Positions 5,303-23,184 of a stretch of DNA of 50,544 nucleotides are shown piece after piece. The stretch's first letter is position 1; each line of letters opens with the position of its first letter. A program made the position numbers and the translations under genes. The stretch is from NCBI GenBank assembly GCA_035529655.1, contig DATKWH010000131.1, positions 1 through 50,544 on the forward strand, read 5' to 3'. This DNA comes from Candidatus Bathyarchaeia archaeon (GTDB lineage: Archaea > Halobacteriota > Syntropharchaeia > Alkanophagales > Methanospirareceae). The notes under the pieces were generated by a model. That model ran no database searches. It was not told the DNA's origin and was given only the letters and a program-made list of their open reading frames with translations.

Positions 5303-5743
5303 AGATGTCCTTAGACCCGTAATAGTAAAACGGATGCCTCAAAAGCTTTTTCTACATTTAAGGCCATATAGTTTTGCTAATATGGAAATTGTTGACAGAG
5401 TGGGGCTTCGTTTCTTCACTGTTCAGCCTTATTGTTTTTTCGATTAATGGTTTGGGGATAAATTTCTTGTAAAGTATATGACGGGAAGATTCTATCTCAT
5501 TCACATGCGATGATTTCATAGACTCTCAGTTGACTATAGCGGACATGCTGTGTCAATTCAAAGTTGTACCCTTGAAAAATTGTATTAAAAGATTTCGGGC
5601 GCGAAATTAGTGGTAAAAAGTATGAAAAGAAGCCCATCTAAACCTTTTTCTATATTTTCCTCACTTTTCAGGTTCAGCAATTTGGAAGGGAAAAGAGATC
5701 TTAGTAATATTATGAGACATGGCGAAAAGCCACTATACATATT

Positions 5744-8700
5744 CTATTTCCGTAGAAATCCAATAAATTGTTCAAATGACTTTCCTTCTTCCCAAATCTT
5801 TTTGTGTATCTTGAACCGGATAGGCCCTCCACTTATCTCAATTTCAATATCACCTGCTTCAGTTATTATTTCTTGCTCTTGTTTGAGATTTTCTGCTTCA
5901 ATAACTTTATCTTGAATCTTTTTGCCAATATCTTCGACAAAGCATATATTGCTTTTTATATTATCCTCAGTCATCTCTAAACCCGTCAATTTAATAACAC
6001 AGAGAACATATTTGTCTGATTTATCCCTTGCTTCTTTTGCCTGGGTGAGAGTCATTCTTACAAAGTCTTGAGATGTTGCTTTCACTTCTATGTAAAAACA
6101 TAGTCTCTCTTCTCTTTTAATCTCAATTATAGTTTCCATGTCATCTTCTACAAAATCATACTCTATAACAAAGTCGCTCCCTACTCCAGTTCTTTCTACT
6201 TTAAAGCCTTCGTTTTCAAGCACAGTTTTAAGAAGATTCTCAATCAATGACCCCAAAGATTGATTTCTTCGAATTTGTTCTCTAATCCGAATTCGTTCTT
6301 CAATTTCACTTATGAATAATTCTTTCTCATTCTCTGCTAATTGGGCAATTTTGCTTAAGTTACTTGGATTTGCCATAAATGTGCCAAATAATGAGCTCAT
6401 TGCCTTCTCCAGTTCTAACTTGGTTTTCTCATCTTTTGCAACAATGCACATCGTAAGTTCGCCAATACCTACATTAAGTTTATTCAAAAATCTTGATGGA
6501 TTATCTTCCCTACAATTCTGTAGCAACTCTTCATGGTCCTCAAGAAGTAAGGCTAAATAGTGGGCATTAGGTTTTTCACTTTTATTTTTGTGTACAGGAA
6601 CCCATGACCGATTTTTAAGCGTGGCTAACCAAAACGCAGGATATATTTTATGTTTTGTGCCACATTCGCAGTTAACCTCTAGAGGAGAATTCCACTGGGT
6701 ATCTACTTCAACTACATATTTTAAAAGAAAATCTAGAAACTTCCTAGCCTTATCTTTACTTTTTCTGATCGTAGCAATAATACCTTTGTCTTGTGTCTCA
6801 AGGAAAGCTATCTTACTTACTACAACATCGTCTGCTGCTTCATGTTCTTTTTCCTCTTCCAATTCTTCAGAAGGCAATAAAAGAGATTCCAAAACCTCTT
6901 GAGATAGCTTTTCTTCATCTTTATATAGCGGGTTAGTTAAAATTAGTCCTTCGTCACCAAGTTTATCCCATTTCTCTTTTTGTGCGATTTCTTCATAATA
7001 TAAGGAAGAAAATATAAAATCTTGAGGGAAAAGACTATCGTAATCTCTTGCAATTTCATTCCAAACATTTTTAGGTGCAAGAAGTTTTTCTTTGTTTTCT
7101 TTACCTAACCAAGCAAATATATTATCTTTCGAGGAAAGGATGGGGTATCCTTCAAAATATTCAATGTTATCATGTTCTAATAACCACTTAAACAATTCCA
7201 TATTGGCTTGGAGATACTGATCACCTTCTGGCTGGGGTTGCCGTTTAATTTTACTTACCACTTCATTCAAAACTTCATCTTGTTTTTTTGTTGGTAGTAA
7301 ATTTTGGATGCTCTCGGAGATCCTTGAATGAAGCAACAAATTGCGAGTATCCTCTTCTAATTTATTAGAAATATCTTTGAGTTTTTCATCAATTCCGTCA
7401 TCCCTAAGCAATTCTGGCTTTTTCTTAAATGTTCCATTCTGATTGGGTAAAATATTTTTACTATCAAACAACCCCTCCCTTTCTACTTCAAGTAAAATTT
7501 CATAAAAAGCGTTAAGCGTATTTAATTCGTCTGCATCCGCAGCCAACTTAGTTTTAAAACTTTGGAGGTCTTTACAACGCTCTATTTCTTCTGCTAGTTT
7601 TTCGATCGTAATTTCGCTATCTGTTAAATTTAATCCCAACGATTTCCATGCACCGAATATTTCTACCCATTCGATGGCAAGTGCCTTTGCTGGCATCTTA
7701 TCTTTATAGATTAAAAATTGGTGACACAAATCCCATAATTTTTCTATTTCTTCCTTTTCTCCACTCTCTATAATCGGTATGATACCTTCATTAGGAGATA
7801 TGAAATCCCCATTCTCTGTCTTAAAAACTTCTACATCCATAATTTCATTAATAAGGTTCTTTAGTAGATCTCTATATCCATCTTTATCAAGCCACTCTTT
7901 AATTGGAGGATCGCCTAAATTTAGTAGAATGTGAGGATTTTCCCATCCATTAAAGCATGTATTTGAGATTAGTTTGATAAACAGTTCGCTGGCATTTTCC
8001 AAAAAGCTTCTATTCCTGTTAATTTCATCGGTATTTTCTTTACCTAGGAAGATTCCATCTCTTCTTTCTGTTGGCTCAAACCTTCTGCTATTAACCACTA
8101 CAGGGAAAGGTAAATCCTGAGTCCCAAAAAGGGGAAAAGCAAGAAAAATTTTTGGGACATCTCGTAAACTCTCTATTCGATAAGTTCCATCATCTTGCTT
8201 TTTCCTTTTTACAGCAATATCTACATCATCCCTTAGTATCAATAATTCATGATTTTCTGGTGGTTTTTCTCCACCCTCTTCTTTTACTATTTTATGCATG
8301 CCATCAGGTTCGTTGTTTCCCTTAACTAATTCAAATTTCAACTTACGACTTTGATCCGTAATCTCGATAATTCCTAATTTATCGTTAAAAGCAAGGACAA
8401 AAGGAGCAATTTTAGTTAGCGCTTCAATTCCTTCTTCGGCAGTTTTTAGAGAGATGTCATTTAATGAGTACTCGTACTCGGCGGTGTAAGGCAGATTCCC
8501 TTTAATGGTTACCAATGATTTTTGATATTTTGTCCATGTGTCTTCCATAAGTTTTTTGATATCATCAGAAGATGTTCCATCTCTATCTATTCTGAAGTCA
8601 AATTTTTTCCCATCTGTTCTAACTCCTCTAACGTTTACTTTCTTTGATAAAAGGTGTGTTACAAGAAAACCTGTTCCGAATTTACCAATATCCTGCTCTT

Positions 8701-8979
8701 TTTTTGTGAACCGTGAAAGATAAGGTGCGCAACCTCCTCAGATTTAAACGGAAGGCCGTTATGTTTGAAGATTAGTTTTTTCTCATCTTTGATAATTTTT
8801 ACTTCTATTGTCCGATCATGGGAGGCGGCGTCTAAAGCATTTTGTAGGAGTTCCCATATCCAGCGTTTCTCATAAATCTCCCGCTTATTTTCAACTTCTT
8901 TTAAGTAGTTGAATATACCTTGAGCTGTATTATCGATTAGTGCTTCGTTCTTTATTCTCTCTTCTTCTTCCGCACTCAT
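5744..8979 (-). CDS. GHKL (sacsin/HATPase_c_3-like) ATPase with C-terminal DUF3883-type PD-(D/E)xK nuclease-like domain; reading frame interrupted, needs a -1 shift at 8698-8704
   Basis: ORF 8979-8659 carries Bergerat motif I (WELLQNALDA) and HNGLPF, then ends 13 codons after an A7 run. The -1 frame continues without stops: EQDIGKFGTGFLV (G2 box) into ORF 8548-5744. C-terminus: GVGSDFVIEYD...IIEIKREERLCFYIEVKATSQDFVRMTLTQAKEA...KYVLCVI (DUF3883-like D..E.K). About 1078 aa if joined. Confidence 0.65.
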
Positions 8980-9097
8980 AACATTACCACGAGCCCGTCC
9001 AGATATGTCTGTATTCTTCTTTGGCTACTACATTAACTTACTTTACATCAGTATTTAAACCTTTAGCAGAATATCTTTGGAATATTCTTTATCCATT

Positions 9098-9172
9098 TCA
9101 TGGCGGCCCCTTCTCCATCATACCCATCTGAAGAAGAACGATTAGCATTTTCGCCGTTATCCGCGGTTTATC
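9098..9172 (-). mobile_element. short remnant of IS transposase 3' end
   Basis: TCATGGCGGCCCCTTCTCCATCATACCCATCTGAAGAAGAACGATTAGCATTTTCGCCGTTATCC aligns (~75% by eye) with 17957-18030. Confidence 0.7.
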
Positions 9173-9363
9173 TACATTAAAATCCTTCATAGTGGTATCC
9201 TCTTAGATCTTTTACCCAGCGGCTTATAGCCGACCTTATCGTGTTGGTAATATTCAACATATCGAATTCATTCTCCATAATATTCACCAACTTCATCAGG
9301 TTTTATAAAATCACACCAAATGCACCCCATAATATCATCTTAAGAAAAGGGAGTGGATCCTAT

Positions 9364-10257
9364 TCATCCAAACGATGGACATTTTTCTTTATAATTACAA
9401 AAATTGCATTTCCATTGATTTCTTTCTCCCACAGAGATAGGTTTTCTCCTTCCAAGCCAGTAATCCAAAGCCCATTCCATTTTTTTACTAAAAAATCTTG
9501 GATCGAATTGGAATTCCTCTGTATGAATCTCCTCTCTTGTAATTTGGTAGATATATTTCAGCTTTATCACATCCGATAGTTTAGGTATTTTTGCTATCTC
9601 TTTATATATCTCTTTAATTTGATTATCCCAAAAAAATCTATTATCATAAAGAGGCTGTGATTCTGAAGGTATTTTTAGACTATTCATGTATTCCTCACTT
9701 AAAGAAATGGCATCGGGGTCTATTCCAAAAGCAGTGTAAACTTCTTCTAAACCCATACTCTCATTCATCATAGAATTCAATCCATACCAATAAATCATCC
9801 CCTGTATTTTGTCTCGATAAATCTGTGAAGATGATGGGCGTCTATTGCTCGTTCTCGTCTTCGTCTCTGTCATTTGGGTTTTCTTAAACTTCCTCCTACG
9901 ATTCAACGAATCTCTGCCCTCTTCATCTATTTTTCTAAGTTCATCAACGGAACAAAGGATCAATACAGAACCAAATTTAAAAAAAACCTGTAGTTCACGA
10001 GTTAGTCCAATATTCTTATACTGTTTTACACCCATCAAAATGTTATGGAGATTTGTATGCAATCTGTCTGAAGGTGTTTTTATCTTTACTTGCCTTACCT
10101 TACTAATTTCAAGTAGTAGATCGTCATGAATTACTTTGCCCCCTTCCATTTCTTTTGTGCTAATAGCCCCATAATGACGTTTAAGATCTACTTGCATCTC
10201 ACACCAAAATTGTTGTGCGATTGATGATGCCGATACGATATGTAATTCCATTCTCAC
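9364..10257 (-). CDS. Cas4-like PD-(D/E)xK (RecB-family) nuclease with four-Cys Fe-S cluster signature, with an internal basic insert
   Basis: 297 aa. N-terminal Cys in IAQQFWCEMQ; CSVDELRKID and MTETKTR (D...ExK); C-terminal WKCNFCNYKEKCP (C-x2-C-x5-C), the DUF83/Cas4 Cys arrangement. No cas genes or CRISPR array in the window. Confidence 0.55.
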   Translation of the reverse strand: MRMELHIVSASSIAQQFWCEMQVDLKRHYGAISTKEMEGGKVIHDDLLLEISKVRQVKIKTPSDRLHTNLHNILMGVKQYKNIGLTRELQVFFKFGSVLILCSVDELRKIDEEGRDSLNRRRKFKKTQMTETKTRTSNRRPSSSQIYRDKIQGMIYWYGLNSMMNESMGLEEVYTAFGIDPDAISLSEEYMNSLKIPSESQPLYDNRFFWDNQIKEIYKEIAKIPKLSDVIKLKYIYQITREEIHTEEFQFDPRFFSKKMEWALDYWLGRRKPISVGERNQWKCNFCNYKEKCPSFG

Positions 10258-10379
10258 TCTCCAATATATCTAAAGTTCTCTTTGGAATAAAGTTTGTGTC
10301 TATCGATCCTCTTTTTGCACCCACTCTTACGTCTTTAGGCGGCTCACTTTCATCCTCGACAACCGCTGCGCATAAAGGG

Positions 10380-10462
10380 GGCTTTGCATTTTTAATACCT
10401 CTTTTGACCGATTAAAAATGCAGATGCCAGAATAAAAATGCAGAATGAAAAAATGGAAAGTT
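10380..10462 (+). repeat. MITE-like end-module copy A (degenerate right end)
   Basis: GGCTTTGCA at 10380. 30 nt later come two direct repeats, GATTAAAAATGCAG (10410) and GAATAAAAATGCAG (10430), then degenerate AAAAAATGGAAAG. Colinear with copy B at 13661-13746. Confidence 0.7.
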
Positions 10463-10728
10463 TAGGAGCAAAAAAGAAGCACTAAGAACTTTTAAGTTTA
10501 TGGCGGTTGTGCGTATATAGGATAAATGATTCGCCTAACAGTTTTTTATACTCCTTCGGATATTTGATATATATTGTGGTGGTAATGGGTGCGTTGGGTA
10601 CACTTGCCCAAATAATAGCAAGTGGACGGATAATTTTTTAAGCTACAAAATTCAGAAAGTATAGTTACCTTTCGCACTCCTCACCTTATCAAAAGAGGGG
10701 TAAAGAAAAAAGAGGATGTAGTGGTGTT

Positions 10729-11034
10729 ATGGAAGATAAAGAGCGTTTTGAGAAGGCTTTAGGAGCGATTGATCTAAAAGAGCTAGGTGAAATGATAGAA
10801 AAAAGCAATCGACGCGGTAGACTATTTGAGGAACACTATGCAGAGTTTCTGGAAAGGTACGCTGGCAAAATAGTAGCTGTTTCTGATTCTGGAAAGATTG
10901 CATCAGTTCCGTTTACCAAAAATGTCGCAGAAGCGAAAAGGAACTTTAAAACTTTGGAAAGGAAATTGGGAAAAGAGAACCTGCGTGCTGCCGCTTCTTA
11001 TATTCCAGAGCCTAACAAAGTAATGTTATTATAG
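10729..11034 (+). CDS. small DUF5678-like protein
   Basis: 101 aa. EEHYAEFLERYAGKIVAVSDSGKIASV resembles the DUF5678 core (..Y.GkwVAi.dgkvv). Followed after 3 nt by a retropepsin-like ORF, a pairing remembered from archaeal and cyanobacterial genomes. Confidence 0.35.
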   Translation: MEDKERFEKALGAIDLKELGEMIEKSNRRGRLFEEHYAEFLERYAGKIVAVSDSGKIASVPFTKNVAEAKRNFKTLERKLGKENLRAAASYIPEPNKVMLL

Positions 11035-11037
11035 ACA

Positions 11038-11271
11038 ATGTGCTTAGGGTACTTTTCTAAAGAAGGTCGACCAAAGTTGGATGCAGTTCTATTCAGCACC
11101 AATTTATCAGCACAAGGGTCTATAAAGTTCCTTTTGGATACTGGAGCCGACATAACTTCGATAACTCTGAAAGATGCTTTGAGGTTAGGGTTCAATGTGG
11201 ATGAAATAGTTACTGAAGAAAATTGTAACTTAGTGAAGGTGTTGGAGGGGTACAGATGTTTATCCAATTAG
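11038..11271 (+). CDS. retropepsin-like (clan AA) aspartic protease, apparently C-terminally truncated
   Basis: 77 aa with the FLLDTGADITSIT active-site motif (DTGA). Typical family members are roughly 120-140 aa. Confidence 0.5.
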   Translation: MCLGYFSKEGRPKLDAVLFSTNLSAQGSIKFLLDTGADITSITLKDALRLGFNVDEIVTEENCNLVKVLEGYRCLSN

Positions 11272-11338
11272 AGATAGCTTAAGGTTTGTTTTCATTTTTT
11301 TATGCACATAAAAGGAGATAGAAAAGCAGGATGGGCAA

Positions 11339-13375
11339 ATGTGGGTAATTAATGATGATTCGCTATTTGGATCAATTATAAAGAATCCCGGTGCGAATAA
11401 AGAAACTATTGAAGCAATAAGTGAGTATGTCTATGATGAAATAAAGTTAGATACTATTTTTAAGATTGAAAAATGGTTAAATGCTTTGTTAGCTCAAGAG
11501 CGAGTTTTGCCTATAACAAAAAAAAGACATCGAGATCACTTACTGCATGCATGCAGAATAGCTGTAATGGGAGAAAAAATTTTAAAGGGAAAAATATCCA
11601 CTAAAAATAATGAAGAGTTTACGTTACTAGATTTGATTACAGAACTGTTTAAAGAAGGATATAAAGATCCAAAGAAAAGAATTTGGCGTGAATATTTTGA
11701 TTATCATGAAATAGACTTAAATGACGAAGAGAGCTTGCAGGAAAAAATACTACAAATATGGTACATTGCTTCTTTGTTTCATGATATCGGATTTATTTAC
11801 GAAACATTTGAAGAGACATGGAGAAGCATTGGAGTTTTAAAGGACACTCCCAAGTTTTCGGAATTATTCTCTGATGTTAATGCCAGTCTTATGAAATTTC
11901 AAAAAAGTTATTTACTTGAACAAACTCAAAAGGAATATAAGTTTGAAATCCCTGGAAGATTTGGCCACGCAGCTGCAGGAGCATCAATATTATATAATTT
12001 AGTCGGTAAAAAAAATCTAAATTGTGATATAGCGGCGGATATCGTTTATCATCATTCAATAGCTAGTCCAATGGCATTTACAGATCATCCTCTCTTGGCT
12101 CTATTAATATTACTAGATGAAGTACAGGAATGGCAACGGCCGGTTATATTGAGAGGCAGAAGTCCGGAAAGAGACTCCGAGCCAGATTTACTTAATACTG
12201 AGGTTCAGTCGGATAGATCTAATAGTTTCGAAATGACTGTAGACAATAATTTAAAATTTGAGTTTATATTGAATTATGGAGATAGACTAAAAATTTTACA
12301 AAAGACAGATTTTAGCTTCCCCTATTTATTATATTCTAAATTTAACAATTTTCAGTATTTAAGGGTTAATGGTACCAGAACAAATAAACTACCAGAAGCC
12401 GTAGTTAAGAAAATTTGTGGGTTAGACAACCTTGAGCTTTCAGGTGCTGTAAAAATCCAGTCCGAAGGCGAATTAGCAAAACATTGGACTCGGCAATGTG
12501 ACCTCCTCAGACGATGGGCTATAGAAAATGGTAACATAACTATAAGAGATTGGCTAACTAATGTTGTCAACATTGATTATAAGACGCCCGTATTTGAAAG
12601 TACTTTAAATATATTTGAATCGCCACTAAAAATTGATGCTAATTTTGAGACTGAAGCTATACAAACTGCTTTCGATCGTTATTTAGAAGATAAAGATATT
12701 ATTGATGAGGAGTTCAACGCAACTCATACCTATAAAAAAGCTAACAATGATCAAGTAATCTGGCATCCACATATAGAAAGGACCTTAATTTTAAAGAATA
12801 ATTCGGCTAGAGAAACCGTAGAGCGTCTGACAGCTTATTTTGGTAATATTAGAATTAAAAAATATGGGAATATTAAAGCATACGCTGGATCCATCCCATT
12901 GAAGTATAAAATATTATTGCCCGAGAAGAGAATTAATGGCGGAATAGAGTATTATGATTGGATTGGACTTGTTTTTTTTCTTAAAGAAAGCGGGTTGGTA
13001 TTAGGTACTGAGCCACTGAAAATTAATTATGATATAGAAATATTTATGCCCACTTCAGATTTAAAATGTGGGTTAATAGATGAAATCAACAACACGCATT
13101 TGTATCCTATAAAAAAGGGGAAAGTAACTGTATGTTGGGACAGAGACTTATTTTGGGAGAAGAGATTTTTTGGAACAATAGCGTATGAAAGTATAGAAGA
13201 GCGGGACCGTATTTTATCTAATCTATCATCTATAAAAAATAAACTTCAAGCCTTCAATCTAGAGCTCGATTATGACGTTCAATATCCCGGTCGTGGTGAT
13301 CGTCCTGTTACAGTTGAGTTTACAGAACTAAAGACCGGAGAATCAGCAGGGCTAATCTGGTTTTCCAGAGACTGA
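11339..13375 (+). CDS. HD-domain metal-dependent phosphohydrolase/nuclease-like protein with a ~400-aa unrecognised C-terminal region
   Basis: 678 aa. HRDHLLHACRIA, SLFHDIGF, FGHAAAGA, VYHHS and LLDEVQEW give the H..H / HD / H / HH / D pattern of the HD superfamily. The rest matches no family I recognise. Confidence 0.6.
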   Translation: MWVINDDSLFGSIIKNPGANKETIEAISEYVYDEIKLDTIFKIEKWLNALLAQERVLPITKKRHRDHLLHACRIAVMGEKILKGKISTKNNEEFTLLDLITELFKEGYKDPKKRIWREYFDYHEIDLNDEESLQEKILQIWYIASLFHDIGFIYETFEETWRSIGVLKDTPKFSELFSDVNASLMKFQKSYLLEQTQKEYKFEIPGRFGHAAAGASILYNLVGKKNLNCDIAADIVYHHSIASPMAFTDHPLLALLILLDEVQEWQRPVILRGRSPERDSEPDLLNTEVQSDRSNSFEMTVDNNLKFEFILNYGDRLKILQKTDFSFPYLLYSKFNNFQYLRVNGTRTNKLPEAVVKKICGLDNLELSGAVKIQSEGELAKHWTRQCDLLRRWAIENGNITIRDWLTNVVNIDYKTPVFESTLNIFESPLKIDANFETEAIQTAFDRYLEDKDIIDEEFNATHTYKKANNDQVIWHPHIERTLILKNNSARETVERLTAYFGNIRIKKYGNIKAYAGSIPLKYKILLPEKRINGGIEYYDWIGLVFFLKESGLVLGTEPLKINYDIEIFMPTSDLKCGLIDEINNTHLYPIKKGKVTVCWDRDLFWEKRFFGTIAYESIEERDRILSNLSSIKNKLQAFNLELDYDVQYPGRGDRPVTVEFTELKTGESAGLIWFSRD

Positions 13376-13411
13376 TGCGGGAAGATGGATTCAACAGTTA
13401 GATGAGTGTAA

Positions 13412-13662
13412 ATGTTAGAGCGATTGGACTCCAGATTATATGAGGATGGTAGCTTTGAAATAAAGGAGAAGCCGTTTTATTTACCGCAAGGAAGCGAAGT
13501 TGCGCTATTTGAAGCGGCCTATAAGAACAAACTTCCAGTTATGCTGAAGGGCCCTACAGGAAGTGGTAAAACACGATTAGTTGAGTACATGGCCTGGAAG
13601 TTAGGTCGGCCACTCTTTACCGTTGCCTGTCATGACGATTTAAGCGGGAATGACCTGACGGG
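13412..13662 (+). pseudogene. 5' fragment of a CbbQ/NorQ-family AAA+ ATPase gene, truncated by MITE copy B
   Basis: First 84 codons are nearly identical to 46791-47042 ([26 protein letters not shown]...[38 protein letters not shown]). Homology stops exactly where GGCTTTGCA begins; the frame then reads [10 protein letters not shown]. Confidence 0.9.
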
Positions 13663-13746
13663 CTTTGCACTCAAAATAGTAATTTTCGTTGATTAAAAGT
13701 GCAGACACATGATTAAAAGTGCAGATGTGAATAAAAGTGCAAAGCC
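13661..13746 (+). repeat. MITE-like end-module copy B (complete, 86 bp)
   Basis: GGCTTTGCACT ... GATTAAAAGTGCAG (13691) ... GATTAAAAGTGCAG (13711) ... GAATAAAAGTGCAAAGCC (13729-13746). Termini are inverted repeats; internal direct repeats are spaced 20 and 18 nt. Confidence 0.8.
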
Positions 13747-14347: not shown

Positions 14348-14404
14348 GAACTATCCTCCGGCATTTCATATATTAGGTACTTAGGTTAATAAATGTTCCG
14401 ATTT

Positions 14405-14450
14405 TCACGGCGGGCCCTTCTCCACCATACTCATCTGAAGAACATTTAGC
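14405..14450 (-). mobile_element. short remnant of IS transposase 3' end
   Basis: TCACGGCGGGCCCTTCTCCACCATACTCATCTGAAGAA matches 9098-9135 and the end of the IS gene at 17957. Confidence 0.6.
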
Positions 14451-14556: not shown

Positions 14557-15426
14557 ATGGCCCAAGATATAGTTGTAACACACACTTGGAATCCTATTAT
14601 TGGGTGTCTTCATGAATGTGCATACTGTATGGCCAGAGATATGGCTGAAAGATTTTCGCTCGGGGCCTCATATGCAGACGAGCATTCAAAATTAAGTAAC
14701 GCTAAAAGTAATTCTGTAATTCTAGTTTGCGATAAGTCTGATATGTTTGGGCATTGGTCTTCCGATGACTGGATTATAAGTGTTATTGAAGAAATTAGTG
14801 AAGCAGACCCAAGCATCACCTTCTTATTCCTCACAAGGAATCCGACGAGGTTCCATACCTTTGTAGACATGCTTCCTGAAAACTGTCTACTCGGAGCGAC
14901 CATCGAAACAAATAAAGATGAAATAGGTGAGGAGTATAGTAAAGCTCCTAAACCTTCTGAAAGATATTTGGCTATGAAAGACTTAAGTTTTTCGAGGAAG
15001 TTTATTCACAGTGAACCTTTATTCGATTTCGATTCTGATGTAATCACTAGTTGGATTCGAGAAATCGCACCTGAGGAATATGTTTTAGGACGCGCACCTC
15101 GTATGTCTGATCTCCTAAATCCAGAGAAAAAATCGAAACCGATAGGGGAAATGTACTGCTGGAACTGCGAGACTACAAGAGAGGCAGAAAGAGTCCAAAT
15201 CGTCCCCGAAGTTGGTGATAATGTTCCAGAGCCCCCCTTAGTTACATGTTGTTTAGAATGCCGTGCCATTTTAGAGCAAATAAGAATAACTTGTTACCTT
15301 TGCAAGGATTATAACAGAGCATTTTATACAGGTTTAATGATGCATGGGGGGTTATTGTACCATGCTTTATGTGAAGACTGCAGGAAAGTAGTGGAGGACG
15401 TAGCTGGCCGCCAATTTAACTTTTAA
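14557..15426 (+). CDS. DUF5131 (phage Gp37/Gp68-family) three-Cys protein with a C-terminal multi-CxxC zinc-ribbon region
   Basis: 289 aa. WNPIIGCLHECAYCMA (CxxxCxxC), VCDKSDMFGHW, FLFLTRNPTRF, LPENCLLGATIET and HSEPLF are colinear with the DUF5131 consensus. The C-terminal ~110 aa carries CWNC, CCLEC, CYLC and CEDC. Confidence 0.6.
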   Translation: MAQDIVVTHTWNPIIGCLHECAYCMARDMAERFSLGASYADEHSKLSNAKSNSVILVCDKSDMFGHWSSDDWIISVIEEISEADPSITFLFLTRNPTRFHTFVDMLPENCLLGATIETNKDEIGEEYSKAPKPSERYLAMKDLSFSRKFIHSEPLFDFDSDVITSWIREIAPEEYVLGRAPRMSDLLNPEKKSKPIGEMYCWNCETTREAERVQIVPEVGDNVPEPPLVTCCLECRAILEQIRITCYLCKDYNRAFYTGLMMHGGLLYHALCEDCRKVVEDVAGRQFNF

Positions 15427-15574
15427 GTTCATTGAAGAATTCGTTTTTTTGGTCCTTTGGGTAGGGTCAAATTTAAGACATTATCACTTTCAGTTGGTAA
15501 ATTAAAGATTTATTCTTCCTCAGAAACTTTTTTAAAGCTTTATGTGTGGTGTTTCTTACCACCATACACAAAAA

Positions 15575-16690
15575 TTAAGGGAAGGTAATTACCGCATCAT
15601 AAAGCAATCCCCCTCTCGGACCCTTTCCCTCGATTTGAATTTTTTCTTCTTTCTCTAACTCTAATAATGCATCGTGATAATGCATTATTTTAGCATACCT
15701 ATCCATAAGGGTTTCATATCTAACATTTAGATAAGATAAAGTTCTACCACTAAATCGACCTAACAAAAATCCTTTTAATTCTGATAAATCATCATATTGT
15801 GTTAGAATCATCTGACCTTCTGCAGGACCTAAATATCCAAACCTTCCCTCAGTTCCTGCCTTATACATTATTTCTTTCATTAACTCGCATCCCTTTGGGT
15901 GATTAGTGGCATGGATAAGGTAGTATATAGTTTGTAATCTCGCATCAGCATTAACCTTAAACGGAAGAGTGTACTTCACGTTTGCGCCTTCATGAAGTCT
16001 ATCCCTATACAATTTTAGCAATGCTTGTTCTTGTGTCAAATCTGAATATTCACTTTGCAATATATCTCGGACATTATCTACACCGTATAATTCCTCAATA
16101 CTAATTATATGCGTTGAACTTCCTAAAAATCTATTGACATCACGAATCATAAAAGTAATAAATACTTCGGTTCTTTCAATCGAAAGAATACGTTTAATTA
16201 TTTCAAATGGAACTGCAAAGCCAAAAGGATCAATGAAAAAGAAAGAAGGTGCTAAGTCGCTCCCAACGCTATTTAAAATTTCCGATGCCACATTGCAAAA
16301 TTCGTCATTACGGAGGTAAATATGATCTTTGAGCCACGCATATTTTTGTGGATTTTTTTCTATTTCTTCATCAATTTCATTTTCAAGATTTTCAAAATTA
16401 TTAGTATTTTTCTCAATAAACACACATTTAATTTCTCCAAGATATGAGATTTGTCTCTTAACACTACATGCTGTATCTAATGCTATTAAAGGTGAACCCT
16501 GTTCTCCTCTGTCGTATCTGCCACGACCGGCAAAACAATCAAAATAACAGACTCTACTATGCCGTCGCCCAAGGATTCTGATCCATCCAGAAAGATATTT
16601 ACTCAATATTTCGTGCTTTACTTGCGTGTGCTCCATATACTTCCACTTTTCCAATGAATCATCGGGTAATGGCATTATCTGTATTACCAA
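15575..16690 (-). CDS. tcmP: three-Cys-motif partner protein (TcmP-like)
   Basis: 371 aa. N-terminus EHTQVKHEILSKYLSGWIRILG....CYFDCFAGRGRY...GSPLIAL matches my memory of the TcmP (TIGR04474) signature, including a methyltransferase-like FAGxG motif. Start overlaps the upstream rSAM-like gene by 7 nt. Confidence 0.55.
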   Translation of the reverse strand: MVIQIMPLPDDSLEKWKYMEHTQVKHEILSKYLSGWIRILGRRHSRVCYFDCFAGRGRYDRGEQGSPLIALDTACSVKRQISYLGEIKCVFIEKNTNNFENLENEIDEEIEKNPQKYAWLKDHIYLRNDEFCNVASEILNSVGSDLAPSFFFIDPFGFAVPFEIIKRILSIERTEVFITFMIRDVNRFLGSSTHIISIEELYGVDNVRDILQSEYSDLTQEQALLKLYRDRLHEGANVKYTLPFKVNADARLQTIYYLIHATNHPKGCELMKEIMYKAGTEGRFGYLGPAEGQMILTQYDDLSELKGFLLGRFSGRTLSYLNVRYETLMDRYAKIMHYHDALLELEKEEKIQIEGKGPRGGLLYDAVITFP

Positions 16691-17850
16691 GTGCAGTTAC
16701 ATTTTATATTTTCAAGATCTAGCCCGAAGGGTTTAAGGAATTCCCACATCTCTCTTGTCTCTTTACAAATACCCACGTCGTAGAAGTTATACTTATCGAT
16801 AAGATATTCTAAAAGTGTAGAGTATATATTAAATCTCGTATAAAATTTCTGTTTTAGTCCCCAACCACTTTTTTCGTTAAGATATTCCACCCAAGAATCG
16901 TCCTTACAATGACTAATAGTGGATTGTAATCCTCTCAAAGTGCCAAGAGTAATCCTCTCAGGCGGGAATCGCATAAAAATATCGTCAATTAGATCTTTGT
17001 AATAAGTCTCCCATCTCTCAGGATATGGAACGATAGGATCTATTCTAAACCTAATCGGATAACCTCGTTCATGGAGAAGCTGAGCAGCATCAAGTCTGTT
17101 TTCTGGATAAGGAGCCCCTGTTTCCCATCTCTCTGCTACTTTACTCGAATTAACGGAAAAGCTAACTACAGTATTAGTTGGTTTTTCTATCTTTAGCAAA
17201 GGCGCGATAGAGCATGATTTTGTCAAAAGCAGTAATTTATGCCTTTTCTGACTTTCAAATGCTCTTATAATATAATAGATATTAGGATCCGAAAGCGAAT
17301 CAGAAAGTTCACCAGCATTTAGAATGTCAGGCGTTTTTGTTTGTAGGAACGTAAAAAGATGATTGCTTATCTTTTCTGGATCTTTTACATAGGCTTTTTT
17401 ACCCCTAAATCTAAAAGTTCCTTGTAAATAGCACCAAGCGCAATTATAATGGCAACCGTTTGCCCATTTTAGCTCTAAGAAATGCGGGCATATGATATTA
17501 GGAGGAGTCTTATTGAAAATGGTTATGATGGATCCATCACTTATTTTTTCCACCCTCTCATTATGATCAAAAGTTACTTTTAAACCATTATTTGGCAGTT
17601 TGGAGAAACATTCCGAAAAGCCGTTATTCACGGCATGGTTAGCGTAAGGAGGCTCTAAGGTTAAATGCCAGATTCTCTTTTTACCATCAATATTAGATTT
17701 AACTAATCCAAGGTGTTCGAGTTCATTCAATTTATTATAGCCCTCTTTGTAACGGCATCCAACCTCCTTTACGATATCAGAAGTTGCTAAACTACCACCG
17801 CATAAAACTCCCTGAATTTCGTATCCTAGACCTCTTTTCATCGCGCCCAT
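16684..17850 (-). CDS. winged-helix domain fused to a spore-photoproduct-lyase/DNA-photolyase-like radical SAM (CxxxCxxC) domain
   Basis: 388 aa. N-terminus SDIVKEVGCRYKEGYNKLNELEHLGLVKS..DGKKRIWHL (wHTH-like). ICPHFLELKWANGCHYNCAWCYLQG is the SPL/COG1533-type cluster motif. Followed by a TIM-barrel-like repeat of beta-alpha segments. Confidence 0.55.
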   Translation of the reverse strand: MGAMKRGLGYEIQGVLCGGSLATSDIVKEVGCRYKEGYNKLNELEHLGLVKSNIDGKKRIWHLTLEPPYANHAVNNGFSECFSKLPNNGLKVTFDHNERVEKISDGSIITIFNKTPPNIICPHFLELKWANGCHYNCAWCYLQGTFRFRGKKAYVKDPEKISNHLFTFLQTKTPDILNAGELSDSLSDPNIYYIIRAFESQKRHKLLLLTKSCSIAPLLKIEKPTNTVVSFSVNSSKVAERWETGAPYPENRLDAAQLLHERGYPIRFRIDPIVPYPERWETYYKDLIDDIFMRFPPERITLGTLRGLQSTISHCKDDSWVEYLNEKSGWGLKQKFYTRFNIYSTLLEYLIDKYNFYDVGICKETREMWEFLKPFGLDLENIKCNCTW

Positions 17851-17956
17851 TTTTTATTTCCTTGAAAAAATAAAAGGTCTTAGGTCTATTTAAAGCTTTT
17901 CATATTCCCATTTTTGTTTTAAATTTTTATTCTCCTTTAGAAAAATATTTTAGACT

Positions 17957-19606
17957 TCACGGGGGCGGTTTTTCAGCCATACTCATTTGAAGAATAACTA
18001 TCAACCTTTTCGCCGTTACCAACGGCTTGTCTGATATCATCCCTAACACGATACTCAATATCATATTTGCGATTACCCAGAGGTTATACATGCAAACGGA
18101 GAAGAAGAAATAGAATAACCGAACAGCAGGATTTTTAGAAGTTGTTTTTGGTTTGAAGTCCCCTTCGACTCGGTAAGATGTCTCGATTCCCCATCGCCTT
18201 TTGAACAGGTTCGCGTGCGTTTTGGCGTTTTTCTCGTTTATATCTAAGTCTGTGGCAAAACATACCGCTCCATCTTCGCTTCTCTTACTTTCGACTACAA
18301 AGATAGTGACGAATTTTTTGAGGTACGGTGGTTTAAGTCGCCTTAATTGATGCCTCGCTATTATTGGAAAACCGTACTTTTTGTTCTTTTCGATTATCTT
18401 CTTCACCTTTGGAGTCTTCACCGCTTGGATGATGAAATGTAGCCCGTATTTCTTCAAAATATATACTACTTCCGTTCGATAGAACCACCGGTCCATATAG
18501 ACTCTGTTAATTTGAATCCTCTTCGTCGCATAGCTAAGGAGTTTATCTATAACTTTCATCATTTCTCTTTCTCGATTTCCACCGCTTTCTACTGGTAAAG
18601 CGAAAAGGGTGAATCTTGTGCCGTTTTCCACAATGCAAATCGTTCCGAATTTGTAGGCATGGTGCGTTCCTCTTGTGGGCTTTGTACCTGTAACCATCTC
18701 CGTATCGCCATCTCCATAGAAGAGCCAATCGGTGAAATCAATCGCAACGTCCTTTTTTCCCTTGAATAGCTTCGGATTGCGCTTTTTTGCAATCTTGAAA
18801 ATGGTATCAAAAGCGTTGATGAATATCTGCATTATCTCTTCTTTACTTCTCTCTTTCTTTTCTCCACCGTATTTCGTGTGGTATTTTATGTGATAGAATA
18901 GCGTATCGGCATCTGGAATCCTTCTGTTTGGGTGAAGTTCTTTCAAAGTTTTGGATGCATTTTCAGCAAAGTCGTTGGTCATAGCTGCGTGAAGTAACAA
19001 ATTCAACATATCCTCAACGGAATACTTCAGGTTATGATGTTCAGAGGAGATGTTTATGAGCGAGAATATCTTCTTCTCCGCTAATCTGCATATCTTCTTC
19101 ATATTCCCCATCTTAAGCTTCTTCTCACCTCCAACGCTTCTTGGGTCAATAAGTCGTATCCCTTTTACATTTGCTTCTTCGGTTATCTTCCACGCCGTCC
19201 ACTTTGCTAAATCCTTTATCTCCCCCGCCGTACAGCGACTAAAGGTCCTATGTCCAGGAATCTCGCCTTCTCTAAAACCTAAATTTTTCGCCTCTTCGGG
19301 GTATCTTTTAAGGACTTTCGCTAGTGTGTGGTAAGATACAATCCCCATCAACTCTTTGAAAACAGCCGACTTCACTATCGCCGAAGGCGGATATTGAGTA
19401 TGCCATACATTTTTGTATTCACGTTTCACTAACTCAGAAATAGGCGGAAGAGCGAACGCACTGAGAAGCTCTGAAATCTTCAAAGCCTTCGAGCTAAGCC
19501 GTCCGAAAATTTTATCTACTTCCGCTTCCAATATGTCTTTTGTGGAGTCTTCTTCTGTCAAGGGGAACACCTCCACCCTTGGGGGGATCGCTTTTTGCGG
19601 GGCCAT
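17957..19606 (-). mobile_element. IS element: intact DDE transposase gene (549 aa, IS4/IS5-superfamily-like); element ends not resolved
   Basis: VAIDFTDWLFYGD and ...MDRWF...RRWGIETSYRVEGDFKPK motifs typical of DDE_Tnp_1-type transposases. 3' end repeated as remnants at 3434, 9098 and 14405. Confidence 0.75.
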
Positions 19607-19830
19607 CCCCTCAAGGATTGTTTATCCTTCGGTTACAGGCTATTTGAAGCCCATTCATCTGCCGCTTTATTTATCATCTTCGCCTTGCACTTTAACATAT
19701 TTTTCGTAGGATTATCGCCTACTATTTGTATATTGGTGGGTGAGTATATAAAGGTTGATGGTATTTTCGTATGAATCTTATAAATAAACCTACGTATTTA
19801 TATACTCGTCATACGATATTATACTATAAA

Positions 19831-20109
19831 ATGATAGATAATTCGGATGAAAGCGAAGGCGATCCGCCGAAGAAGCTTGAGTACCGGAAACTGCCAAGCA
19901 AAGTGGAAGAACTCGTTGACGATGAACGGGCGAAGATAACGCGTACGGCGAACATCACCTTTGATAAGAGACAGTATTTGGTTCGGTTCCCAAAGGAGAT
20001 TGCAGAGGAATTGGGCTTGAGTACAGAGCATAAGGTGCGATTCACCCTCATTAGTGCGAAAACAAGGACTGATGAAGAGCCTGAGCTGACGATGGAGGTG
20101 GTGAAATAA
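19831..20109 (+). CDS. AbrB/SpoVT/MazE-type swapped-hairpin DNA-binding protein
   Basis: QYLVRFPKEIAEELGLSTEHKVRFTL matches the AbrB-like core. ATG 19831 preferred over track start 19771 because TATTTATATAC (19795-19805) lies about 30 nt upstream. Confidence 0.45.
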   Translation: MIDNSDESEGDPPKKLEYRKLPSKVEELVDDERAKITRTANITFDKRQYLVRFPKEIAEELGLSTEHKVRFTLISAKTRTDEEPELTMEVVK

Positions 20110-20322
20110 ATGAAGGAAGAGTTTAATAACACAGAAAAGCGAATACTCAAGGTGTTGTACCAACACCATAAGGCGCTGTCAACGAGCAAGGTAGCGAAAT
20201 ATACTGGATACTCGTACAACACGGTGAAGAAATATCTAATAAGCCTTCATAAGCGGAAATATGTGAGATATATGCACCACGGAAATGCGATCTATTGGTG
20301 GCTGATGGAAGAAAGGGGATAG
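20110..20322 (+). CDS. small winged-helix (MarR/TrmB-like) DNA-binding protein
   Basis: 70 aa. EKRILKVLYQHHKALSTSKVAKYTGYSYNTVKKYLISLHKRKYV has an HTH + wing pattern. Start abuts the stop of the AbrB-like gene. Confidence 0.5.
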   Translation: MKEEFNNTEKRILKVLYQHHKALSTSKVAKYTGYSYNTVKKYLISLHKRKYVRYMHHGNAIYWWLMEERG

Positions 20323-20416: not shown

Positions 20417-23134
20417 ATGCCATTGAGTTGGAATGAAATAAGGAAGAGGGCAATTGCATTTTCGAGTGAATGGAAAGAAGAAACCAGCGAGAGCGCGGAG
20501 GCACAAACCTTTTGGAATGCGTTCTTTAAGGTTTTTGGTAGAGAGCGCCGGGTTGTTGCGCTGTTTGAAAAAAACGTCAGAAAATTAGGCAACAAAAGGG
20601 GCGCAATTGATCTGTTTTGGGAAGGTAAGCTAGTTGTAGAACACAAATCAGAAGGAGAGAGTTTAGATAAAGCATACGATCAAGCATTAGATTATTCTGA
20701 AGGATTGAGCGATGAACAATTGCCAAAATATGTGATTGTGAGTGATTTCAGACGATTTAGGTTACATGATCTCGAGAACGATAAACAGTATGAAATTAAG
20801 CTTGAGGAGTTGGCAGAGAAGACCCATTTGTTCGAGTTCATGCGTGGTGGCAAAGAAAGATCGTACGAGGAAGAAGACCCGGTCAATATAAAAGCTGCGG
20901 AACTCATGGGGAAATTGCACGATTCTTTAAAGGAAAATGGTTACGTCGGACACCCACTTGAAGTTTTACTTGTTCGTCTGATGTTCTGTCTTTTTGCGGA
21001 TGATACCGGTATTTTTGAAAAAGATCAGTTCACTCGGTATATCGAAACTAAAACGAACATAGATGGTTCTGACGTAGGATTGCATCTCAATGCGATATTT
21101 CAAACATTGAATAAACCAGAGGAAGAGCGACAGAAGAACTTGGATGAAGAACTTCAGTTATTCCGGTATGTTAATGGTTCCTTATTTGAAGAGCGGTTTG
21201 AAGATCCTTCGTTCGATAGTGACGGACGAAAAATCCTACTAGAGTGCTGTCATTTCGATTGGAGTCACGTATCACCGGCAATTTTTGGCTCTCTGTTCCA
21301 ATCCGTAATGGATCCGAAAGAACGGAGAGATCTCGGTGCGCATTACACGTCCGAAGAGAACATTTTGAAAACGGTTCGAGCACTCTTCCTGGATGACTTA
21401 CGGCACGAGTTCGAGTTGCATAAGCATAACAAGCGATATTTGCAAGAGATGCTGGAACGAATAGGGGCGATGAAGTTTCTCGACCCTGCGTGTGGCTGTG
21501 GTAACTTCTTAATTATTGTGTATCGAGAATTACGACGGATTCAAATTGAAATCCACAAGCAACTACGGAAATTAGAGGGTCGACTTGGGCAACGAGTGCT
21601 GGACATTGAATTTGCTCATGACCTTAACGTTGACGCGACGTACGGTATTGAGATCCTGGAATTTCCTGCACGAATCGCCGAGGTGGCTTTATGGTTAGTA
21701 GACCATCAAATGAATGTGGAACTGTCAAAAGAATTAGGAGAGTATTATGCGCGGCTTCCGCTCGAAAAAGCACCGAATATTGTTAACGGAAATGCACTTG
21801 GACTCGACTGGAAGGATATCGTACCCCCAGAGGAGCTGACCTATATTCTAGGGAACCCGCCCTATGTTGGGAAAAAGAAACGAAGTGCTGAGCAAAATGA
21901 TGATATGATTTTAATATGTGGTAATATCAAGAATTATGGGATTCTTGACTATGTTTGTTGTTGGTATGTCAAAGCGGCTGAATACATTAAAGATACCAAA
22001 ATAAAAGCGGGGTTTGTTTCAACGAATTCGATAACTCAAGGAGAACAAGTAGGCATTTTATGGGACTACCTCCTTAATAAGGAAAAAATTAAGATTCACT
22101 TCGCTCATAGAACTTTTAGATGGTTTAATCAAGCAAGGGGTAAAGCACAAGTCTATGTAGTAATCATTGGCTTTGCATCTTTCGATACAAAATTAAAGTT
22201 ACTTTACGATTACGAAACGCCAACCTCGGATCCTGTAGGTGTAAAAGCCAGTAATATTAATCCATATCTCGTGAATCAGAAAGATATTATTTTTAAAAAT
22301 CGAAGTAAACCTTTATGTAGCGTCCCGGAGATTTCATTTGGGAGTATGCCGAATGACAACGGCAACTTTTTGTTTACGGACTTAGAAAAAGATGAATTCT
22401 TAAAAGAAGAACCTGGAGCGATAAAATACATTTTCCCTTTTATCTCAGCCAGAGAGTTCTTACATAATGAAAAACGGTGGTGTCTTTGGTTACAGGATGT
22501 CAATCCGTCAGAAATTAGAAAATCACCAAAAGTGGAGGAAAGGATAAAAAACGTCAAGGCCTATCGATTAAAGAGCAACAGGGAGAGCACAAGAAGACTG
22601 GCTGAGACACCTTATCTTTTTGGTGAGATTAGACAACCAAAAAACGATTATATCTTAATACCTCTTCATTCATCTGAGCACAGAAAATATATCCCTATTG
22701 CCTTTTTTCCACCAACAGTCATTGCCAATAATTCTTGCAGCGTTATCGAAAACGCTTCATTATACCATTTCGGTGTACTTACGTCTGCCATGCACATGGC
22801 ATGGATGCGCCATGTTTGCGGTCGCTTAGAAAGTCGATATCGCTATTCCAATGTTTTGGTTTACAACAATTTTCCATGGCCAGAAAACCCGACGGAAAAG
22901 CAAGTCGAAGAAGTGGAAGCCCGAGTAAAGGATTTATTAGCTGTGAGAGAATCCTATGCTGATACATCTCTTGCGGATCTTTACGATCCTATTCTTATGC
23001 CGAAAAAGCTCTTAGACACTCATAAAAAGCTTGATAGAGTGGCAGAACGCTGCTATCGGCCCAAGGCATTCAAGACCGATTTGGAGCGGTTGCAGTTCCT
23101 ATTTGAGTTGTATGATGCGTACTTTACCGATTAA
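20417..23134 (+). CDS. MmeI-family type IIL restriction-modification enzyme (fused endonuclease / N6-adenine methyltransferase / TRD)
   Basis: 905 aa, colinear with remembered MmeI: MPLSWNEIRKRAIAFS, IDLFWEGKLVVEHKS (D-x9-E-x-K nuclease), LDKAYDQALDY, PINIKAAELMGKLHD, FGSLFQSVMD, GAHYTSE, FLDPACGCGNFL (motif I), GNPPYVG (motif IV), STNSITQGEQV, RLESRYRYS. Confidence 0.9.
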   Translation: MPLSWNEIRKRAIAFSSEWKEETSESAEAQTFWNAFFKVFGRERRVVALFEKNVRKLGNKRGAIDLFWEGKLVVEHKSEGESLDKAYDQALDYSEGLSDEQLPKYVIVSDFRRFRLHDLENDKQYEIKLEELAEKTHLFEFMRGGKERSYEEEDPVNIKAAELMGKLHDSLKENGYVGHPLEVLLVRLMFCLFADDTGIFEKDQFTRYIETKTNIDGSDVGLHLNAIFQTLNKPEEERQKNLDEELQLFRYVNGSLFEERFEDPSFDSDGRKILLECCHFDWSHVSPAIFGSLFQSVMDPKERRDLGAHYTSEENILKTVRALFLDDLRHEFELHKHNKRYLQEMLERIGAMKFLDPACGCGNFLIIVYRELRRIQIEIHKQLRKLEGRLGQRVLDIEFAHDLNVDATYGIEILEFPARIAEVALWLVDHQMNVELSKELGEYYARLPLEKAPNIVNGNALGLDWKDIVPPEELTYILGNPPYVGKKKRSAEQNDDMILICGNIKNYGILDYVCCWYVKAAEYIKDTKIKAGFVSTNSITQGEQVGILWDYLLNKEKIKIHFAHRTFRWFNQARGKAQVYVVIIGFASFDTKLKLLYDYETPTSDPVGVKASNINPYLVNQKDIIFKNRSKPLCSVPEISFGSMPNDNGNFLFTDLEKDEFLKEEPGAIKYIFPFISAREFLHNEKRWCLWLQDVNPSEIRKSPKVEERIKNVKAYRLKSNRESTRRLAETPYLFGEIRQPKNDYILIPLHSSEHRKYIPIAFFPPTVIANNSCSVIENASLYHFGVLTSAMHMAWMRHVCGRLESRYRYSNVLVYNNFPWPENPTEKQVEEVEARVKDLLAVRESYADTSLADLYDPILMPKKLLDTHKKLDRVAERCYRPKAFKTDLERLQFLFELYDAYFTD

Positions 23135-23184
23135 AAGTGCAGCTTTCGGAATGAAAGTGCAAACGTGAATAAAAGTGCAAAGCC
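23129..23184 (+). repeat. MITE-like end-module copy C (right-end half only)
   Basis: GATTAAAAGTGCAG (23129), GAATGAAAGTGCAA (23149), GAATAAAAGTGCAAAGCC (23167-23184). Same 20/18-nt spacing as copy B. The first repeat supplies the stop codon of the MmeI-like gene. Confidence 0.8.

Follow-up and report, generated by a model that had tools for sequence, protein, structure and literature searches.

The closest described relatives of the locus reported here are the TcmP/three-Cys pairs, in which a TIGR04474 protein (TcmP) stands beside a protein of PF07505 (DUF5131) or of the "radical SAM mobile pair" families (SAM, S-adenosylmethionine). The defense-system database PADLOC lists TcmP plus DUF5131 as the phage-defense candidates PDC-M30 and PDC-M41. 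The published data that we found on the pair are correlative only (enrichment in phage-resistant P. aeruginosa strains), and literature searches on TcmP, DUF5131, PF07505, TIGR0447x, "radical SAM mobile pair" and GMT-wHTH recovered no functional study. The radical SAM defense system Ophion was considered and found to be unrelated, as it combines a radical SAM protein with PHP and PRTase components. Radical SAM proteins resembling SplB (COG1533) have been reported to be under SOS control and to be tied to cassettes of mutagenic polymerases (PMC8565304, PMC3765255), in papers that mention neither TcmP nor a methyltransferase-fold partner nor embedding in restriction-modification (R-M) systems. 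We analyzed a 50,544-nucleotide archaeal metagenome contig assigned to a Candidatus Bathyarchaeia archaeon (DATKWH010000131.1, positions 1 to 50,544; the window), in which three genes at 14557–17850 encode TcmP and two radical SAM proteins; homologs of its TcmP were found in Methanosarcina, Methanolobus and Methanobacterium. As a TcmP/three-Cys pair, the locus belongs to a kind that is already catalogued but functionally orphan, and the original prediction, made from the sequence letters alone, overstated its case in calling the system undescribed, given the PADLOC entries. Since relatives of the three genes lie within R-M operons and SOS clusters, the module most likely acts chemically on DNA, and we tentatively favor the reading that it is a mobile, SAM-dependent DNA base-modification module associated with R-M systems.

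All three open reading frames (ORFs) and the motifs quoted for them in the original prediction were recovered, and profile searches backed each family assignment. TcmP lies on the minus strand at 15575–16690 when read from a TTG start (371 aa). Gene callers placed the start at the ATG at 16675 (366 aa, leaving an 8-nt gap to the radical SAM gene) or further in (353 aa), and the ATG at 16675 is the likely start; the 7-nt overlap between the two genes that had been proposed exists with the TTG start at 16690 only, and not with the ATG or a later start. The genes are tightly coupled with either TcmP start. Against TIGR04474 the protein scored 207.6 bits (cutoff 53) over profile positions 1–261 of 263, which bears out both the TcmP identity and the motifs EHTQVKHEIL and FDCFAGRGRY from which it had been proposed; its score against PDC-M30A was 144 bits. 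TcmP itself also carries a C-terminal winged helix-turn-helix (wHTH; PF22560, 27.1 bits vs. a cutoff of 27). The family is large, with 8,059 clusters at 50% identity at E ≤ 1e-3 and 4,839 at E ≤ 1e-10.

An AlphaFold2 (AF2) model of TcmP, built from 72 homologs, had a pLDDT of 92 and a pTM of 0.89. Foldseek returned 49 PDB matches at E ≤ 1e-3, and all among the matches listed were class-I SAM-dependent methyltransferases, including Trm1, cation-dependent O-methyltransferases, histamine methyltransferase and the DUF519/RlmJ-family structure 2oo3; the tRNA methyltransferase Trm5a was also among the best structural matches. Across 91 diverse homologs, down to ~25% identity, the residues D46, G50, G52, E/D88 and F147-x-D149-P150-F151-G152 were kept in 85–90 of the sequences. 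These residues make up motif I (D46-x-F-x-G50-x-G52, FDCFAGRG), motif II (E/D88) and motif IV (F147-x-D149-P150-F151-G152, FIDPFG), and further near-invariant elements are G60-S-P and, in an N-terminal helical region, K20-H21...Y27...W31. The protein accordingly combines the Rossmann-like fold of class-I SAM methyltransferases with a GxG-bearing motif I, an acidic motif II and a motif IV, and the predicted fold and conserved motifs uphold its earlier description as methyltransferase-like. The motif IV loop of exocyclic-amino methyltransferases is (D/N/S)PP(Y/F), which the DPFG loop of TcmP appears to resemble. A recollected "DPFG" motif in Trm1 could not be confirmed by a search, and was not used as evidence. 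Given the conserved motif set and the wHTH, TcmP appears to be a methyltransferase that is competent for catalysis and has a domain for binding DNA.

Immediately upstream of TcmP on the same strand, and co-transcribed with it, lies a 388-aa radical SAM gene (16684–17850, minus strand) related to spore photoproduct lyase (SPL). It matched PF20903 at 61.6 bits (cutoff 27) and PF04055 at 27.8 bits, just below the cutoff of 29.5, and its CxxxCxxC motif reads GCHYNCAWCY; motif and profile match place it in the radical SAM superfamily, with Fe-S binding and SAM cleavage predicted. Over ~170 residues it aligns with the SPL of G. thermodenitrificans (C...C.WCYLQ vs. C...C.YCYLQ). It is SPL-like and not SPL, however, because its TIGR04070 score of 71.8 bits is far below the equivalog cutoff of 400 and because the H-donor Cys140 of G. 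thermodenitrificans SPL aligns to a Glu, within N-A-G-E-L-S-D, that is invariant in 120 family members (family motif N-x-G-E-L-x-D-S-L). The PDB entry 4FHG, per its Foldseek description, is the C140S mutant of SPL. Three more invariant cysteines near the family's C-terminus (C-K-E...C-N-C; residues 362–386 of the window protein) did not appear in the portion of SPL covered by the alignment, whose end is near residue 293, and could form a second metal site. The earlier label of a wHTH-fused SPL-like protein holds for the SPL Pfam family and the GCHYNCAWCY motif; the N-terminal wHTH gave weak profile matches in the window sequence itself (Csa3 HTH, E = 0.003; a PHROG regulator, 5e-4) and is firmer through its relatives, with HTH matches in homologs P0124 and P0139 and an alignment with five relatives. 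It occurs in ~6 of the 120 closest homologs. The protein matched neither TIGR04471 nor TIGR04470 (Radical SAM mobile pair A/B), nor any PADLOC PDC model.

The third gene (14557–15426, plus strand) converges on TcmP from 149 bp downstream and encodes a 289-aa small radical SAM protein that resembles DUF5131, with PF07505 at 46.1 bits (threshold 28.9) and PHROG 2045 at 3.8e-18. Its assignment to DUF5131/Gp37-Gp68 stood in part: the PF07505 match is restricted to residues 8–121 and to the first half of the profile (positions 8–140 of 243), and the cysteine spacing in the window protein and its subfamily is CxxxCxxC (GCLHECAYC, within GCLHECAYCMA), unlike the canonical C-x6-C-x2-C (CDRVSAGCDHC in gp38 of phage Easley, CDRISAGCDNC in Gp37 of M. 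chubuense). Alignment to Easley gp38, a canonical DUF5131 protein, with hhalign gave a 98.5% probability over ~150 residues. RadicalSAM.org places DUF5131 in radical SAM Megacluster-5-2, next to SPL in the same megacluster. Matches to PDC-M30B (32.5 bits, E 1.5e-8) and PDC-M41B (37.9 bits) were weak, and TIGR04471 (Radical SAM mobile pair) scored 36.3 bits vs. 355, below equivalog level. Residues ~190–289 form a conserved cysteine-rich tail with four CxxC pairs, zinc-ribbon-like (ZnR), that is kept in 7 full-length homologs and absent from shorter relatives. An AF2 model of this protein was poor (pLDDT 57.6, 11 sequences), and Foldseek found no significant match for it, lipoyl synthase and SPL appearing as weak ones (probability ~0.95, E ~0.03) that hint faintly at a radical SAM barrel. 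Among short relatives of the protein, 51 of the 69 loci with room for a neighbor had no TcmP within 300 bp, so this short clade is not strictly TcmP-dependent. Within the metagenome relatives (L094–L173), the short proteins (~220–240 aa) have recurrent neighbors other than TcmP: 15 loci have an overlapping downstream gene for a 202-aa MgsA_C-like protein, and 6 have a small Methyltransf_25 protein upstream.

The link between TcmP and radical SAM partners is obligate. The two were adjacent or fused in 76 of 81 independent genome loci, far beyond chance: an SPL-like protein was adjacent in 18 loci and fused to TcmP in 7, another radical SAM protein was fused to it in 2, and a small radical SAM or DUF5131 protein was adjacent in 49, the remaining 5 loci without a detected partner being mostly contig ends. 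TcmP::radical SAM fusion proteins were also present in the protein database (P0160, P0165, P0166 and P0238). An identical copy of the window genes was recovered from a second sample; L002, which is 100% identical to the window, was not counted as an independent occurrence. Both partner classes together were found at none of the 81 genome loci, and the window's trio recurred only in two metagenomic lineages (L006/L095 and L007/L094), in the co-directional order ParB_N – SPL-like – TcmP – (metzincin) – DUF5131-ZnR, ParB_N being the first gene of the operon in L006/L094. The convergent TcmP/DUF5131 geometry of the window is the canonical arrangement in Gordonia phages and on a Sinorhizobium plasmid. 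Comparison of the window (15575–17850) with L178 (8001–10243) showed wHTH-bearing radical SAM proteins that are 86% identical (84.6% in DNA) beside TcmP proteins with just 33% identity, which points to recombinational swapping of the TcmP subunit and to exchangeable partners. A loosely analogous set of two radical SAM genes plus TcmP was seen on plasmid pHALXA02 of Halopiger xanaduensis (L181, 3359–7149), where a 448-aa protein with an N-terminal CxxC...CxxC (zinc ribbon) is divergent from a 349-aa paralog preceding TcmP, with a ThiF-family gene nearby.

R-M genes are the commonest company of these pairs. The 72 non-redundant loci gave 133 immediate flanking genes, in which the leading Pfam families were ResIII (8), N6_N4_Mtase (7) and MmeI_Mtase/Eco57I (6), followed by HSDR_N, N6_Mtase and Mrr_cat (2 each), and R-M genes lay within 6 kb of the pair in 15 of the 81 loci. 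Type III and Type IIG systems host TcmP pairs in operons. Mod-TcmP-radical SAM-Res operons with abutting or overlapping ORFs were found in L041, L045 and L051, similarly tight IIG-SPL-TcmP and IIG-TcmP::radical SAM operons in L009 and L053, respectively, and a IIG enzyme stood directly upstream of the pair in 6 other loci; the closest archaeal relatives (L003, L175, L178) sit beside Type I or IIG-like systems. The R-M methyltransferases beside TcmP retain DPPF, DPPY or NPPY, so TcmP appears to be an addition to these systems and not a replacement for their methyltransferase. The window's own R-M enzyme, an MmeI-family Type IIG protein (20417–23134, plus strand), has all five MmeI Pfam domains, an intact NPPY at residue 480 and a PADLOC REase_MTase_IIG score of 1198 bits, and is the probable functional neighbor of the module. 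In L175, L176 and L177 (2745–3272), a gene for TBP (TATA-binding protein) interrupts a Type I R-M operon between hsdS and hsdM; an SPL-TcmP pair adjoins it, and the archaeal element that contains them bears an integrase.

Under the reading that we tentatively favor, TcmP would be the DNA-binding subunit, with its wHTH and class-I methyltransferase fold, and would bind SAM, engage a flipped-out base and most likely methylate it. A radical SAM partner acting in complex with TcmP, here the SPL-like enzyme with its own wHTH and the second, DUF5131-type enzyme with its zinc-ribbon tail, would generate a 5′-deoxyadenosyl radical and abstract a hydrogen from the base or from the new methyl group, and this radical step would elaborate the base into a non-canonical DNA mark. 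We infer a protective or marking role for the product. The module may originally have stood back-to-back with the MmeI-type enzyme, ~150 bp away, until an ISH3 element inserted. An R-M-associated modification is suggested by the methyltransferase fold and motifs of TcmP, its obligate pairing with radical SAM proteins, the embedding in R-M systems, the wHTH on both proteins, the ParB_N operons and the partner swapping, which is typical of R-M and defense modules; the PADLOC listing as PDC-M30/M41 and the location in prophage lysogeny modules also count for it. Mobility is evident from the distribution of TcmP. It was found on 47 plasmids and, among 50,697 records, in just 5 distinct phages; the sequenced phages that carry it are Gordonia phages. 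The pair of two Gordonia phage genera shares a transcript with the immunity repressor and stands in the lysogeny module, directly after the repressor and before the integrase.

DNA-damage (SOS) genes form a second recurrent context. A lexA gene lies directly upstream of TcmP or overlaps it in L017, L018 and L063, a TcmP::SPL fusion stands between recA and recX in L020, and L075 and L077 have the order recA-recX-TcmP-SPL. L066 and L067 carry a lexA-x-x-PolB-TcmP-DUF5131 cassette. At ~5000–11900 of both loci, this runs lexA, a 239-aa protein, a 92-aa protein, a family-B DNA polymerase (PolB), TcmP and DUF5131, a layout that recalls the lexA-imuA-imuB-dnaE2 cassettes of mutagenesis except that the polymerase is PolB; L003 and L174 likewise have PolB genes close to their TcmP pairs. 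That the LexA-like genes are prophage CI-type repressors was considered and rejected: of the four S24 proteins that flank the pair directly, three have a LexA DNA-binding domain. Together with the recA/recX and PolB neighbors, that domain supports a genuine SOS link.

Several points weigh against R-M-associated modification. SOS genes (lexA, recA/recX or PolB) lie within 6 kb in 12 of the 81 loci, and SOS linkage, combined with the fact that the radical SAM partner's only characterized relative is a repair enzyme, fits repair better than marking. The neighboring R-M systems already have a competent methyltransferase, which leaves the need for a second mark unexplained. In the window the MmeI gene is divergent and separated by an insertion sequence (IS), and the R-M genes of L178 have a convergent orientation and are not co-operonic. 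The structures nearest to TcmP are of methyltransferases that act on RNA or small molecules, at modest TM-scores (0.3–0.5; target-normalized up to ~0.5), and searches of the PDB by sequence, with TcmP alone and with a 72-sequence profile, matched no solved methyltransferase, so that its tie to these enzymes comes through fold comparison only. For no family member did we find a demonstration of modification, methyl transfer or DNA binding.

DNA damage reversal, which the original prediction had not considered (its gene identities, methyltransferase likeness and defense island all stood), draws on the same lexA, recA/recX and PolB evidence. Under this possible, if somewhat doubtful, alternative, the TcmP-radical SAM pair would be an oxygen-independent direct-repair system in which the methyltransferase-like pocket of TcmP recognizes and flips a damaged or aberrantly alkylated base and the SplB/DUF5131-type enzyme repairs it by hydrogen abstraction, e.g., by radical demethylation or cross-link cleavage. 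It would account for the R-M company of the pair, because methyltransferases cause off-target alkylation, much as Vsr accompanies Dcm. Besides the SOS contexts themselves (L017, L018, L063, L020, L075, L077, L066 and L067; 12 of 81 loci), it agrees with the SOS regulation of SplB-like radical SAM proteins (COG1533; PMC8565304, PMC3765255), and with SPL itself being a repair enzyme that has the C...C.(Y/W)CYLQ motif in common with the window protein. However, TcmP keeps its full set of SAM-binding and catalytic motifs, which a mere lesion reader would not need, and the H-donor Cys140 of SPL is an invariant Glu here. The patchy, mobile spread through plasmids, prophage lysogeny modules and defense islands is atypical of core repair, and R-M neighbors of TcmP pairs outnumber SOS neighbors (15 vs. 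12 of 81 loci within 6 kb).

A broader proposal, which we consider rather unlikely, is that TcmP and the SplB/DUF5131-type enzymes constitute a widespread, unrecognized class of DNA editors that write, rewrite or erase N-methyl marks by radical chemistry. In one form the pair would be an oxygen-independent DNA demethylase; in the other it would be a hypermodifying enzyme, recruited by R-M systems and induced in the SOS response, that prevents self-restriction of new, unmodified DNA. Writing or erasing N-methyl marks against self-restriction after repair synthesis would, speculatively, unify the R-M and SOS contexts.

A self-contained anti-phage effector of the PDC-M30 type, independent of the neighboring R-M enzymes, seems less likely still. 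TcmP would in that case sense foreign DNA, either unmodified or bearing phage-type modifications, and direct radical damage to it by the partner (strand scission or cross-linking). The candidate status in PADLOC, the defense-island setting in the window, the position of the Gordonia phage pair between repressor and integrase, which is a typical site for prophage defense genes, and the correlative enrichment in phage-resistant P. aeruginosa strains are all consistent with such a role, as is the adjacency of TcmP to Hna in S. meliloti. Yet the proteins have no recognizable nuclease or toxin domain, the tight operonic position between Mod and Res points to a partnership with R-M and not to autonomy, and such an effector would not readily explain the recA/recX and lexA contexts.

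It is quite improbable that TcmP and its partner modify a tRNA or rRNA nucleotide, as Trm5 followed by TYW1 does, with the DNA-related neighbors being coincidental. The structural matches of TcmP do include Trm1, Trm5a and the DUF519/RlmJ rRNA-methyltransferase family; against this stand the steady association with R-M, SOS, ParB and PolB genes and the lack of translation-related neighbors, as well as the wHTH DNA-binding domains on both proteins, the membership of the radical SAM partners in the SPL/DUF5131 megacluster and the patchy mobile distribution. Least probable of all is the alternative, raised in the original prediction, of a decaying remnant of viral DNA-modification genes that is functionless in its present host: the island is full of IS fragments, with an IS 89 bp upstream of the radical SAM gene, a nearby AAA_5 gene is truncated and DUF5131 was first named from phage proteins, but none of the three ORFs is shortened or lacks a residue that is invariant in its family, an identical copy came from a second sample, no virus structural genes lie nearby, and TcmP is rare in sequenced phages, where it sits in the lysogeny module and not among structural genes.

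The trio lies within a low-GC island at ~3–23 kb of the window. Its setting as a defense island is supported, as had been predicted, and the R-M link is stronger than was then apparent, R-M genes being the commonest neighbors of TcmP pairs. The island includes SocA/HicB-like, NOV_C, Exo5/Cas4-like nuclease, HD-like and truncated AAA_5 genes as well as the DEDDh exonuclease, IS and MmeI genes already named as neighbors of the trio; these last were confirmed, the IS as an ISH3-family element and the MmeI enzyme as complete with its five domains. No tRNA or integrase gene was found at the island borders, and no virus structural genes near the trio. The gene at the left end (4034–4744) encodes a fusion of a SocA/Panacea domain with an antitoxin domain resembling HicB. 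The large NOV_C (DUF3883-type) protein of 934 aa (5744–8548, minus strand) has a counterpart in L175 (5226–6905), where a 559-aa TPR plus NOV_C protein lies directly upstream of the SPL-TcmP pair. A 678-aa protein with a weak Cas3-HD-like match, followed by the 94-aa, apparently truncated AAA_5 (GvpN/MoxR/IetA-like) fragment (together 11339–13696), may be the remains of another two-gene defense system.

The ISH3-family IS (17940–19705, minus strand; transposase 17957–19606; NF033541 152 bits; DDE_Tnp_1; imperfect 23-nt terminal inverted repeats) lies between the start of the radical SAM gene and the MmeI module, its end 89 bp upstream of the former. Without it, two divergent units, the radical SAM side and orf112-HTH-MmeI, would stand ~150 bp apart. 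The two small ORFs leading the MmeI gene (19771–20322, plus strand) encode a 112-aa protein for which profile searches gave no match and a 70-aa wHTH regulator with HTH_IclR/TrmB-type matches. A decayed ISH3-end fragment (14403–14442; direct-repeat family D1) and the IS end at 17955–17994 flank the three-gene module exactly. In all, copies of the ISH3 3′ end lie at 3434–3631, 9096–9173, 14403–14442 and 17955–18156, the last within the span of the intact IS, and the decayed fragments split the island into modules. Two copies of a 56-nt direct repeat (13691–13746 and 23129–23184; repeat family D4, 82% identity) flank a 9.4-kb unit comprising the DEDDh gene, the trio, the IS and MmeI; the core 11-mer of D4 occurs in the window at these two copies only, the left copy starts before the truncated AAA_5 ORF has ended, and the repeats could be insertion borders or shared terminators. 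They are copies of an element rich in AAAAGTGCA that was seen at three window sites (10404–10442, 13685–13746 and 23123–23184). Scans for bacterial-type promoters and terminators returned chance-level results and carry no information for an archaeal host.

TcmP spans bacteria, archaea, plasmids and prophages, and we found no experiment on it. We also did not find its methyltransferase fold and motifs, its fusions to two radical SAM classes, its R-M embedding or its SOS linkage in the literature available to us; together they make the family directly testable. Should radical DNA modification or repair prove true, both restriction-modification and anaerobic genome maintenance would gain a further layer of enzymes, and the DUF5131/Gp37-Gp68 and SplB-like families, long orphans, would have a function; the DNA-editing proposal, if true, would imply the first epigenetic mark in cellular DNA made or erased by a radical SAM enzyme.

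Set against known systems, the proposed chemistry has an analogy in wyosine biosynthesis, where the class-I methyltransferase Trm5 adds an N-methyl group that the radical SAM enzyme TYW1 then elaborates. The same two-enzyme logic may apply to TcmP and its partner, although the wyosine substrate is tRNA, TYW1 belongs to a different radical SAM family and the resemblance of TcmP to tRNA methyltransferases is at the level of fold only. The Dpd (7-deazaguanine) and Dnd/Ssp (phosphorothioation) systems likewise place multi-gene modification machinery beside restriction components in mobile islands. The arrangement is alike, but they have no protein families in common with the window module, whose modification is hypothetical, and chemistry combining a radical SAM enzyme with a methyltransferase is not known from those systems. 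SplB (PDB 4FHC) belongs to the same Pfam family as the window's SPL-like protein (PF20903) and has a similar cluster motif; the window protein differs in its score (71.8 vs. 400 bits), in the Glu for Cys140 and in the extra invariant C-terminal cysteines, and its family is always paired or fused with TcmP. The SOS-regulated SplB-like proteins (COG1533; PA0069 and Rv2578c families) fall in the same broad clade, the PA0069 and Rv2578c models gave the best scores for some TcmP partners, and TcmP pairs, too, show LexA linkage; the window differs in its archaeal host and has no LexA context. Among TcmP/three-Cys pairs (PDC-M30/M41), finally, the window TcmP is a bona fide member with a convergent three-Cys partner, as in Gordonia phages and rhizobial plasmids. 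The locus is set apart by having the two partner classes side by side, as none of the 81 genome loci does, by the N-terminal wHTH on the SPL-like partner, and by a small radical SAM partner that combines CxxxCxxC with a zinc-ribbon tail of four CxxC pairs and matches PDC-M30B and PDC-M41B only weakly.

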